A stretch of DNA of 23,278 bases, taken from a virus (Duplodnaviria; Heunggongvirae; Uroviricota; Caudoviricetes). A program made the position numbers. Each line of letters begins with the position of its first letter. The first letter of the stretch is position 1. Shown here in pieces: positions 15,001 through 18,000 of this stretch. Location: the IMG/VR virus record IMGVR_UViG_2547132127_000004; one strand, 5' to 3'.

Positions 15001-18000
15001 CGCAATGCCGCACTGCGCGATGCAGAAAAAACACTGAATGAGGCGCTGCAGAAATTACGTGATGCGCATACCTGTGAAGCAGCTGAAGATGCCCTGAAGG
15101 ATGCGCAGAACATGATGGTCACACTGTCGACAGGAAAGGGCGTCATTCAGCCGGTACATATTGATGATGTGCTTCCGGAAGTGGTTGAGCGTGTTGAATG
15201 CCGGAATCAGGGGCTGGAGAAATCCAGGACGTTGATGACCGGTATTGATGAACTGGACGCAAAAACAGGCGGTATGGAGCCCGGAGACCTGGTATTCATT
15301 GCCGCCCGTCCTTCGATGGGGAAAACCGAACTTGCGCTGGACATCATCGACAAGGTGACTGAGCAGGGGCATGGTGTGCTTCTGTTCACCATGGAGATGG
15401 CGAACATCCAGATTGGTGAACGTATGGTGTCTGCGGCTGGAGGGATGCCAGTATCACGCCTGAAATCTGTGGCTCACTTTGAAGATGAAGACTGGACGCG
15501 TTTCTCACAAGGGGTGGGGCGGATGACCGGGCGCAATATCTGGATGGTGGACCAGGCGAACCTGGCCATTGATGAGATATGCGCAACAACGAAACACCAC
15601 CTGATTAAATATCCGGAAACGGCGCTGGTGGTGGTTGATTATCTCGGGCTGATAAAAACCCGAACCACGGGGCGTCATGACCTTGCCGTGGGTGAAATCT
15701 CAAAGGGGCTTAAAGGCCTGGCAAAATCCGGTGGTTTTCCGTTGATTGCGCTGAGCCAGCTCTCCCGCGGTGTGGAGTCCAGACCCAATAAACGTCCCAT
15801 GAACTCAGACCTGAAAAATTCCGGAGAAATAGAGGCGGATGCAGACATCATTCTGATGCTTTACAGGGATGAAGTGTACAACCCGGATACGCAGGCCAGG
15901 GGCATCGCAGAAATCAATATCACGAAACAACGTAACGGTTCTCTGGGAACGATTTACCGGCGTTTTTATAACGGACATTTTCTGCCTGTGGACCAGGAAA
16001 GTGCACGGGTGCTTTCCACTCCCATGAAGCCCGGCAATCCGCGCAGATACAGTAATAAACGAACTGACAGCAGTAAGATGGAGCGTTTCTTTTGAACAAC
16101 CAGACAATGACTTTTACCCCTGAACAATTGCGTAAACACGCGCAGGAAATGCTGCGTCATGCTGAACAACTCGAAAAAACGGGCATAACAAAAGATGCTA
16201 TCCGTAAAGATATGGTACCCGCGCTTCGGGAACTGATGCAGGCGAAGCATCGCGCACAGAAAGCAGTAGATGAGCTGGTGGACTGTGTGGCAGAGCTGGA
16301 AACCAGAGTCGGAAAGTTTGAAAAACTGGTGCAGGAGGCGCTGCGCTGATGCGCCATGAGTTTGTTTTGCCCTGGCTTGTGCGCGATCATTATGTCCCTG
16401 GTGGAAAGCCCGGGATAAAAATCACCGAACCGGAGAGTATTTGATGAGCGTCAAAATTCAAACGATACCGGAACTGCTTATCCAGACACGAGGTAATATG
16501 ACCGAAGTTTCACGAATGCTGAACTGTAATCGCGCCACGGTAAGAAAATATGCTGAAGATAAAGAGGGCAAAGGGCACGCCATTGTTGATGGTGTTCTGA
16601 TTGTTCATCGTGGATGGGACAGGGGTAAAGACAGTGATGCGTGATATTCAGCAGGTTCTTGAGCGCTGGGGCGCGTGGGTGGCTAATAATCATGAGGATG
16701 TGACCTGGTCGTCCATTGCTGCCGGTTTTAAGGGATTAATCCCTTCAAAAGTAAAATCCCGCCCGCAATGCTGTGACGATGACGCGATGGTTATATGTGG
16801 GTGTATGGCCCGCCTTAACCGGAACAACAACGATCTACATGACTTGCTGGTTGACTACTACGTGTTTGGGATGACATTCATGACGCTGGCGCGGAAGCAT
16901 GGATGCTCAGATGGTTATATAGGAAAGAAGCTACAAAAAGCCGAGGGGGTGGTGGAAGGAATGTTGATGATGTTGGGTGTCCGGTTAGAAATGGACAAAT
17001 ATATTGAACATCCCTGATGGTAAGGGGCGACTTTCTAGAAAATATTTTACGTACGTAAAAAACGGGATATTCTGTTAAGAGTGGTTGCTTCGCCACACAG
17101 CTTAAACCCGCCTCCGGGCGGGTTTTTTATGCCTGAAAAACGGTACAGGACGTTAAACACGCTGGTGGTCAGATGAGTTTGCAGATGTGATGACATATGG
17201 TTATTATTCTGCCTCCGGCCCTTTAGCTCAGTTGGTCAGAGCGAGCGACTCATAATCGCCAGGTCGCTGGTTCAAGTCCAGCAAGGGCCACCAACCACCA
17301 CTAGCTCATCCGGATAGAGCATCAACCTTCTAAGTTGACGGTGCGAGGTTCGAGTCCTCGGTGGTGGGCCAGCGCCGACTTAGCTCAGCAGGCAGAGCAA
17401 CTGACTTGTAATCAGTAGGTCACCAGTTCGATTCCGGTAGTCGGCACCATATGCGGGCATCGTATAATGGCTATTACCTCAGCCTTCCAAGCTGATGATG
17501 CGGGTTCGATTCCCGCTGCCCGCTCCAGTCAGAGTCTTTCAGTCTGCGATGATGGGAAATCCCGGAGTGACTGAAAGACGTTTAAGTTATGAATGATCGC
17601 CTTTTTTTGCAAAATTGCTGTGCAGAAATACTAACCTTCGGGCGTGCGATCATTCATAAGCACTCTGCTTTTATTCCGATTAACTGTGGGTGGTTTGTTG
17701 GATAGAGTGCTTTCCTTACTGTATATATCGTTTCGCCCGCTTTTGCGTTTTTTTCTTTTCAAATCCCTTTCATTTCTCAGTGTAAAACTACGCCATCCGT
17801 TATTTGCGGAGGTGAGGCTATGAAATCCATGGACAAAATTTCAACGGGCATTGCCTACGGCACCTCCGCCGGCAGTGCCGGCTACTGGTTTTTGCAGTGG
17901 TTGGATCAGGTCAGGCCATCACAGTGGGCTGCGATTGGTGTGCTGGGAAGTCTGCTTCTGGGGCTTCTGACTTATCTGACGAATCTATATTTCAAAATAA

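Follow-up and report, generated by a model that had tools for sequence, protein, structure and literature searches.

tRNA units and regulatory RNAs between Q and the lysis genes

In lambdoid phages that carry Shiga toxin (Stx) genes, such as 933W and Stx2a_F349 (F349), the transfer RNA (tRNA) unit ileZ-argN-argO lies between Q with the terminator tR' and the lysis genes. We analysed the corresponding locus in a virus record of IMG/VR (IMGVR_UViG_2547132127_000004), whose whole stretch of 23,278 nucleotides (nt) is called the window here, and found that its tRNA array is followed by a conserved structured RNA. The array of the window occupies the same place as the Stx unit, and its first two tRNAs are homologous to those of that unit (88-90% identity). 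The Stx2 unit starts with the promoter TTGCAA-N17-TATTAT and a GC-rich discriminator, a layout that the window shares, and a predicted intrinsic terminator ends both arrays. In contrast to the Stx unit, the window array has copies of thrU and glyT in slots 3 and 4, where the Stx unit has argO; it is not followed by stx, nanS-p or any other cargo; and between its last tRNA and the terminator lies a structured RNA of 185 nt, which a covariance model did not find in the Stx2 phage. The initial annotation of the window had recognised the order of Q, terminator, tRNAs and holin as that of Stx-type lambdoid phages, and F349 indeed shows Q - ileZ - argN - argO - stx2AB - ... - holin. Neither the tRNAs nor their location is novel; the new element is the structured RNA, well supported, widespread and unannotated, that is fused to a prophage tRNA operon.

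Regulatory non-coding RNAs (ncRNAs) are also encoded between Q and the class II holin in lambdoid prophages, namely PasD/EcOnc13, PasA/PasC and StxS of enteropathogenic and enterohaemorrhagic Escherichia coli (EPEC/EHEC) (PMC8550237; bioRxiv 10.64898/2026.05.13.724894; PMC7547250). PasD is encoded on the late strand, is about 172 nt long and has a terminator at its end (PMC8550237; bioRxiv 10.64898/2026.05.13.724894). The RNA of the window resembles the Pas small RNAs (sRNAs) in that it is intergenic in a lambdoid late leader, lies near a class II holin and has a 3' terminator, but it differs from them in adjoining the 3' end of a tRNA. Comparison of PasA, long PasA, PasD1 and PasD2 with the window (blastn, word size 7) returned chance matches, none of them in 17528-17819; PasA, PasD1 and PasD2 were taken from E2348/69, and PasC was not among the compared sequences. 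Since there was no sequence similarity to PasA or PasD1/D2, and the covariance model R1 described below had no match in the EPEC loci PP2 and PP4, identity with these Pas RNAs was rejected. IpeX of the K-12 prophage DLP12 was discarded as well, because nmpC lies on the other strand near quuD and the pR'-tR' segment is all that the essD leader has in common with the window.

Other comparable RNAs are found at the ends of stable-RNA operons. The 3' external transcribed spacer of leuZ (3'ETS-leuZ) is a sponge from the tail of the glyW-cysT-leuZ tRNA operon, as Lalaouna et al. reportedly described in 2015. The sRNAs rrA, rrB and rrF are located at the ends of rrn operons (PMC8144298). Like the RNA of the window, all of these form the 3' tail of a stable-RNA operon, from the last tRNA or rRNA to the terminator; they belong to the host core genome and are short RNAs that act by base pairing and have little structure, whereas the window RNA is phage-borne, about 185 nt long and almost fully paired. 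Phage T4 likewise has small stable structured RNAs without a known function, C and D (species 1 and 2), which are transcribed together with its tRNA cluster and processed from it. These differ from the window RNA in coming from a virulent phage, in having unrelated sequences and in not being a leader of lysis genes.

A conserved three-hairpin RNA follows the tRNA array

The RNA and its domains were located as follows.

17531-17717, + strand: conserved three-hairpin RNA of about 185 nt (folds, RNAalifold, covariation, covariance model)
17534-17579, + strand: H1, a putative kink-turn (K-turn) hairpin
17587-17659, + strand: H2, with a conserved inner hairpin whose loop is AAAAUUGCU
17660-17710, + strand: H3, with the invariant GGGUGGUUUGUUGG

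The spacer between the last tRNA and the holin gene (17528-17819, 292 bp) contained only short open reading frames (ORFs) and, as the initial annotation had stated for these roughly 290 bp, no toxin gene. The longest internal ORF (17589-17705) crosses a poly-T run that is 7, 8 or 9 nt long among close relatives. A protein-coding spacer was therefore rejected: the ORFs are short, and the one across H2 and H3 would lose its frame through the variation of this run.

Perfect inverted repeats of 11 bp (17534-17544/17569-17579) and 14 bp (17587-17600/17646-17659) were detected, together with a further repeat of 9 bp (17658-17666/17704-17712). The first two had been noted before and both exist, but the 3' arm of the second had been placed one nucleotide too far downstream, at 17647-17660. 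It had also been suggested that these repeats might be regulatory structures, and they proved to be stems of a + strand RNA that are conserved with covariation. The + strand of the window folded better than shuffled sequences (z = -3.6), and the same three hairpin domains were predicted in single-sequence folds of the window and of phage HK639. RNAalifold, applied to 27 distinct sequences, yielded 58 pairs in six helices. In this structure 98.8% of the cells were paired, against 40-47% in slid controls, and the covariation score was 0.249, against 0.05-0.10. Two-sided changes were found in 12 pairs, compared with 1-5 in the slid controls, although most of these changes split the E. coli-type from the HK639-type clade and the independent events are fewer than the cell counts. 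The independent variants L111, L121, L010 and L063, which belong to the related loci numbered L here, contribute further events. None of 500 shuffles attained the observed pairing or covariation score.

Alternation between Watson-Crick and G.U pairs was observed at columns 11-42, 66-125, 80-98, 82-96, 138-182 and 160-167, with AU and GU 13 times each at 11-42, and CG 17 times and UG 10 times at 138-182. Because G.U pairs become A.C mismatches on the other strand, the constraint acts on the + strand RNA and not on DNA palindromes.

The internal loop of H1 fits the K-turn consensus at the level of the motif. A GAU bulge (17548-17550) is followed by G.A/A.G pairs of 17551-17552 with 17565-17566. 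Known K-turns and H1 share a Watson-Crick C-stem that ends in C-G, a 3-nt bulge, tandem G.A/A.G pairs, and then a stem of U.G plus three G-C pairs. All of these columns were invariant in the 27-sequence alignment: the C-stem (12-17/37-41), the GAU bulge (18-20), the GA/GA pairs (21-22 with 35-36) and the following stem (23-26/31-34, UGGG/CCCG). The motif is kept in the independently found locus L134 and partly in L132. Bacterial K-turns are known from rRNA and from riboswitches (SAM-I, T-box, lysine); H1, by comparison, would place the motif in the leader RNA of a phage. The unpaired blocks GCAAAAUUGCUGUG and GGGUGGUUUGUUGG and the K-turn loop were also invariant. When the complements of these three conserved unpaired blocks were sought in the window as cis targets, they matched it no better than chance.

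The covariance model R1, built from the alignment, gave the window a score of 205 bits. With a threshold of E <= 1, R1 had no match in the Stx2 phage, the EPEC PP2 and PP4 Pas loci, DLP12 or an LT-IIb phage fragment. A search of 16950-17900 against Rfam 15 at gathering scores returned the four tRNAs only, and at E <= 10 nothing credible was found within 17528-17819. One weak match in the spacer, to a C/D-box sRNA (E = 5), probably reflects the K-turn-like GAUGA...CUGA. The structured RNA has no family in Rfam 15 and was not found in the literature searched. A T-box, considered in view of GGGUGG, the K-turn and the terminator, was rejected, as there was no RF00230 match and no antiterminator was evident by eye between H3 and the terminator. 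An RNase III site was set aside too, because the stems of 11-15 bp fall short of the roughly 20 bp that, as is well established, are usually needed.

The element is widespread and fixed in position

Among 5,426 complete E. coli genomes, 523 contained the spacer at full length (at least 80% coverage), and 515 of the 530 records with any spacer match were at least 95% identical to it. It was also found at 97% identity in the cultured phages phi467, vB_EcoS-689R5, vB_EcoM-606R7 and PhiR47_1. An S21-type holin was found downstream in 85 related loci, and in 81 of these it starts 292-295 nt past the tRNA; H1 begins 3-6 nt after the tRNA CCA end in about 110 of 125 loci. Eight representative loci were inspected further downstream, and each of them continues with a lysis cassette; the ORFs in its first (holin) position are of several dissimilar kinds.

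More distant copies occur in phage HK639 (75% identity, different flanks), whose late leader has four terminators annotated by the depositors, and in E. coli KC-Dl-1 (88%), as well as in Enterobacter hormaechei and Phytobacter ursingii. The copy of Yokenella regensburgei is partial and comprises H2 and H3 only. The element has been kept where the tRNA-Gly has decayed (HK639 and KC-Dl-1), and also in an apparently defective prophage riddled with the insertion sequence IS600. An origin of the spacer from host sequence after glyT was rejected, because the host has thrT there and no similarity was found.

About one in ten complete E. coli genomes, together with Shigella, Enterobacter and Phytobacter, carry this unannotated RNA before prophage lysis genes, at a site that in other prophages is occupied by genes for regulatory sRNAs (Pas, EcOnc, StxS) or toxins. 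ORF-free intergenic DNA between Q and S should accordingly not be annotated as empty.

Cargo in relatives was limited to IS600 in H3 (L025, L047 and L085) and an ORF of 112 aa between the element and the holin (L055). In these three related viral contigs the IS600 end TGAGGTGTACTGGCAATAG lies inside H3, and the holin has been pushed 2.8 kb away.

Promoter, tRNAs and terminator around the structured RNA

The remaining parts of the unit are listed below.

17179-17207, + strand: predicted sigma-70 promoter of the tRNA operon (-35 TTGCAG at 17179-17184, 17-nt spacer, -10 TATTAT at 17202-17207)
17217-17293, + strand: tRNA-Ile2 type, anticodon CAU, ileZ/ileX-like (ARAGORN, Rfam and the Prokaryotic Genome Annotation Pipeline, PGAP)
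17295-17371, + strand: tRNA-Arg UCU, argN-like, slot 2 of the array (ARAGORN, Rfam)
17374-17449, + strand: tRNA-Thr UGU, a near copy of host thrU (ARAGORN, Rfam)
17453-17527, + strand: tRNA-Gly UCC, a copy of host glyT (ARAGORN, Rfam)
17734-17759, + strand: predicted intrinsic terminator closing the tRNA/structured-RNA unit, weak allele CGCCCGC-UUUU-GCG with U7CU4

The GC-rich discriminator TCTGCCTCC fills the interval between the -10 element and the +1 of the tRNA; a promoter scan found the tRNA promoter in a register shifted by one base. Of 39 distinct sequence contexts preceding the CAU tRNA, 38 retained the pattern TTGCNN-N17-TAT(T/C)AT with a GC-rich discriminator of 7-10 nt up to the tRNA 5' end. 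Among these 38 was the Stx2 phage F349, which has the same promoter before ileZ. The flanks beyond the promoter are unrelated among contexts and derive from different Q modules, so the conservation is specific to the promoter. The transcription start site of the Stx2 ileZ promoter has been mapped (PMC7547250). By homology, the promoter would be active in the present phage as well. A side observation concerns a Chi site, GCTGGTGG, at 17161-17168 on the + strand between tR' and this promoter; GCTGGTGG with Chi is similarly placed in several otherwise unrelated upstream contexts.

ARAGORN identified exactly four tRNAs, all on the + strand and head-to-tail, and the Rfam tRNA model scored each of them at 56-70 bits (cut-off 29). 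The folds and isotypes assigned initially (CAU Ile2-like, Arg-UCU, Thr-UGU, Gly-UCC) were thus confirmed. ARAGORN labelled the CAU tRNA as Met, and the identical gene in E. coli CFSAN029787 is tRNA-Ile according to PGAP. This tRNA was identical to K-12 ileX at 69 of 77 positions (89.6%), compared with 50-74% identity to thrU, tyrU, glyT, thrT and argU of K-12. Its acceptor stem, GGCCCTT/AAGGGCC, as read from the sequence, contains the pairs C4-G69 and C5-G68, which are TilS determinants of tRNA-Ile2, the lysidine-modified CAU tRNA. Because of the ileX identity and these acceptor pairs, and in agreement with the PGAP label, the CAU tRNA is of the Ile2 type as judged from sequence. The Arg-UCU tRNA shares 73% identity with host argU, and the segment 17200-17371, which takes in the -10 element of the promoter and the Ile2 and Arg tRNAs, shares 88-90% identity with ileZ-argN as annotated in many records of Stx2 phages; by these likenesses the Arg tRNA belongs to a phage lineage. 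The tRNA-Thr matched K-12 thrU at 74 of 76 positions, both differences being in the D-loop, and the tRNA-Gly matched K-12 glyT at 75 of 75. The phage appears to have taken the host thrU-tyrU-glyT cluster without tyrU, and the LT-IIb phage fragment holds the same Thr-Gly pair.

Codon usage was compared between the prophage genes of CFSAN029787 and 42 K-12 genes. The codons ATA, AGA, ACA and GGA, for which such a comparison had been proposed, were enriched about 2- to 7.5-fold; the factors, in this order, were 2.0, 4.6, 1.9 and 2.5 for the late genes and 3.8, 7.5, 3.8 and 3.2 for the early genes (all p <= 0.012). This enrichment of codons matching the four anticodons fits codon compensation.

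Across the 125 related loci the array was usually Ile2-X-Thr-Gly, with X a variable slot 2 (for example in relatives L004, L010, L029, L040, L081 and L089, among others). Slot 2 was a Lys-UUU tRNA with C33 instead of the near-universal U33 in about 60 loci and Arg-UCU in 10, the window included, and it was missing in 14. In the HK639-like clade the slot-2 scaffold is kept with anticodon loops of 5 nt (UAAAU, UUAAU, UUUAU, CCAGG), which ARAGORN called Phe-AAA, Leu-UAA, Stop-UUA or '???'. The variability of slot 2 could be related to evasion of anticodon nucleases. In KC-Dl-1, a chimeric tRNA with an Arg 5' part and a Gly 3' part (L005, 2423-2500) stands before the element, apparently through a deletion between tRNA genes. 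In HK639, a Gly pseudo-tRNA with a broken acceptor stem (L003, 2412-2495) follows the tRNA-Asn.

The terminator lies about 25 nt past H3. Relatives of the window carry an allelic series, from GCCCGC-UUUU-GCGGGC (-13.7 kcal/mol) through GCGGGU (-11.5) to GCGGUU (-6.6); successive G-to-U changes along this series lengthen the U run. In copies of the HK639 type, the equivalent hairpin is unrelated in sequence (CCUCGC-UUCG-GCGAGG with a U run), and a second terminator often comes after it; the annotation of HK639 also places a terminator at the position corresponding to that of the window. In the Stx2 phage F349, GGCUCGC-UUUU-GCGGGCC with U6 comes directly after argO.

Possible functions of the unit

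Our preferred reading, to which we give about an even chance, is that 17179-17759 is a self-contained stable-RNA transcription unit (a 'moron') that was inserted between tR' and the S21-type holin and serves as an insulator and as a leader of the lysis mRNA. The unit would comprise, in this order, a sigma-70 promoter, four tRNAs for A-ending codons overused by the phage, the three-hairpin RNA and an intrinsic terminator. It is taken to be an insertion because DLP12 has the same pR'-tR' segment ahead of its holin without the unit. The promoter-tRNA-terminator design is also present in the Stx2 phage, where the promoter is the same and the terminator comes straight after argO. In the lysogen, the unit would be transcribed from its own promoter and supply tRNAs, which RNase P and RNase E would free; the structured tail and the terminator would end the transcript and keep the tRNA promoter from reaching the lysis genes. 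Upon induction, Q-modified polymerase from pR' would pass tR', the tRNAs and the unit terminator, and excision of the tRNAs would cut the late transcript, so that the structured RNA would become the 5' end of the lysis/late mRNA and probably protect it. We infer these processing steps as well as the insulating and stabilising roles of the unit. If the unit insulates the lysis genes from a constitutive tRNA promoter, this would explain how tRNAs can be expressed safely in lysogens, and the allelic series of the terminator would be a natural dial of leakiness.

Several observations weigh against this reading. The allele of the window, GCGUUU with a U7 run, is the weakest of the terminator series (-3.3 kcal/mol) and is therefore a poor fit to a strict insulating role. 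The domains are modular and occur as H1 alone (L034), H1 with H2 (L106 and L009), H2 with H3 (Yokenella) or H3 alone (L155), which argues against one integrated fold. In Enterobacter quasihormaechei (L155), the lone H3 stands after a tR'-like terminator without tRNAs. In HK639, a tRNA-Asn begins 8 nt past tR', so no separate promoter is possible there. The placement in these two loci indicates that the element is independent of the tRNA promoter, and it persists next to a decayed tRNA-Gly or at sites that leave no room for a separate promoter (HK639, L155). Furthermore, the invariant unpaired nucleotides and the K-turn exceed what a simple insulator or 5' hairpin would need.

Rather less probable, in our estimate, is that the structured RNA is a trans-acting ncRNA, such as an Hfq- or ProQ-type sRNA, a sponge or a protein-binding RNA. 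Such an RNA would be cut from the tRNA precursor or the late leader, end at the terminator and act on host or phage targets, with PasD/EcOnc13, StxS and the 3'ETS of leuZ as parallels. PasD (172 nt, 5' of the holin) shares its strand, place, size class and terminator-type 3' end, and a promoter of its own would permit expression in the lysogen. The invariance of GCAAAAUUGCUGUG, GGGUGGUUUGUUGG and the K-turn loop points in the same direction, as does the retention of the element beside a decayed tRNA-Gly in HK639 and KC-Dl-1 and in the apparently defective, IS600-riddled prophage. However, the RNA has no sequence similarity to PasA, PasD (PasC not compared) or any Rfam sRNA, no complementary target stands out within the window, and it is far more base-paired than typical seed-bearing sRNAs. 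If it does act in trans, it would be a new prophage regulator in pathogenic E. coli and Shigella.

With similarly limited confidence, the element may be viewed as an undescribed family of phage ncRNAs made of modular hairpins, one of which is a K-turn. It would have a specific protein or RNA partner and its own function, be it in the physiology of the lysogen, in conflicts between phages or with phage defence, or in lysis timing. It would be accompanied by a tRNA cassette whose slot 2, variable in its anticodon, could replace or decoy tRNAs attacked by anticodon nucleases.

It appears quite improbable that the hairpins are separate cis sites on the late transcript, for example for binding or processing by a host or phage factor that times lysis-gene expression, with no particular tie to the tRNAs. 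This would suit the occurrence of the domains singly or in differing pairs among relatives, the lone H3 of L155 after a tR'-like terminator without tRNAs, and the finding that a lysis cassette follows the element, irrespective of the type of holin, in all relatives whose downstream genes were examined. The K-turn of H1 would also suit it, being typical of protein or tertiary contacts. Against this stands the start of H1 3-6 nt past the tRNA CCA end in about 110 of 125 loci, and since carriers differ in Q type, Q is an unlikely partner. Moreover, we know of no candidate binding protein, and E. coli has, to our knowledge, no L7Ae-type K-turn binder.

The idea of the initial annotation that this is an empty cargo site with repeats left as a scar of cargo exchange, and with it the reading of the repeats as a DNA-level recombination site, can be dismissed almost entirely: stx does lie at the corresponding place after the tRNAs in Stx phages, and the IS600 copies in H3 of three contigs and the 112-aa ORF of L055 show that the neighbourhood tolerates insertions, but the 292 bp proved to be conserved backbone sequence, the outcome that the initial annotation itself had named as refuting, since 523 genomes and four phages have them at full length and the holin lies at a fixed distance, the compensatory and G.U changes reveal selection on a + strand RNA fold rather than on DNA palindromes, and HK639 has a homologue at 75% identity between different flanks.

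Prophage setting and flanking genes

The genes and signals that border the unit are the following.

16637-17017, + strand: Q, late antiterminator of the Q21 type, 126 aa (Pfam PF06530, E = 4e-54)
17104-17131, + strand: tR'-like intrinsic terminator of the short late-promoter transcript, AAACCCGCC-UCCG-GGCGGGUUU with a U run
17820-18035, + strand: holin of the S21 type (class II) with dual start MKSM (Pfam PF04971, E = 6e-35)

The window is a segment of an Escherichia/Shigella chromosome with a lambdoid prophage and two IS600 copies. Its region 17000-17900 was 100% identical to seven complete E. coli genomes, among them CFSAN029787, where the locus is a prophage adjoining mlrA; the Q-tRNA-holin segment of that prophage is identical to the window. 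S. flexneri SFBU1023 and E. coli ECMA0423, too, carry the element region without any difference. Q matched the solved Q21 structures PDB 6P18/6JNX (E = 4e-8), and the identical CFSAN029787 locus annotates it as 'antiterminator Q family protein'.

The tR'-like hairpin (17104-17125) is a perfect 9-bp inverted repeat, and the fold prediction agrees with it; from its position after Q, 17104-17131 would function as tR'. The segment 17046-17127 is 89% identical to a DLP12 segment of K-12 located about 120 nt upstream of essD (L126, 6196-6277). In DLP12 this pR'-tR' segment stands before the holin without tRNAs or spacer, downstream of the nmpC insertion. The short-transcript region pR'-tR' is the positional counterpart of the StxS sRNA in Stx phages.

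The holin belongs to the P21 S family and is followed by a 209-aa protein, lysozyme and Rz. Its Shine-Dalgarno sequence and both MKSM start codons lie inside a hairpin predicted at 17808-17867 (GCGGAGGUG/CACCUCCGC) from an inverted repeat and the fold. This arrangement recalls the start-site control that has reportedly been described for S of phage 21. The 209-aa ORF between holin and lysozyme (18039-18668) is phrog_1085, of unknown function, and had no match in Pfam or PADLOC; most relatives have a 103-aa YdfR/DUF1327 protein in its place.

The two IS600 copies, at 5828-about 7091 and 20114-about 21381, bracket about 13 kb of the prophage, the second lying directly past the lysis genes. At 11887-12075, Rfam matches to isrK (58 bits) and, beside it, to a C4 antisense RNA (80 bits) were found. 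This pair lies upstream of a Rha/antirepressor-type region and forms an immunity RNA module of the P1/P7 or Gifsy type.

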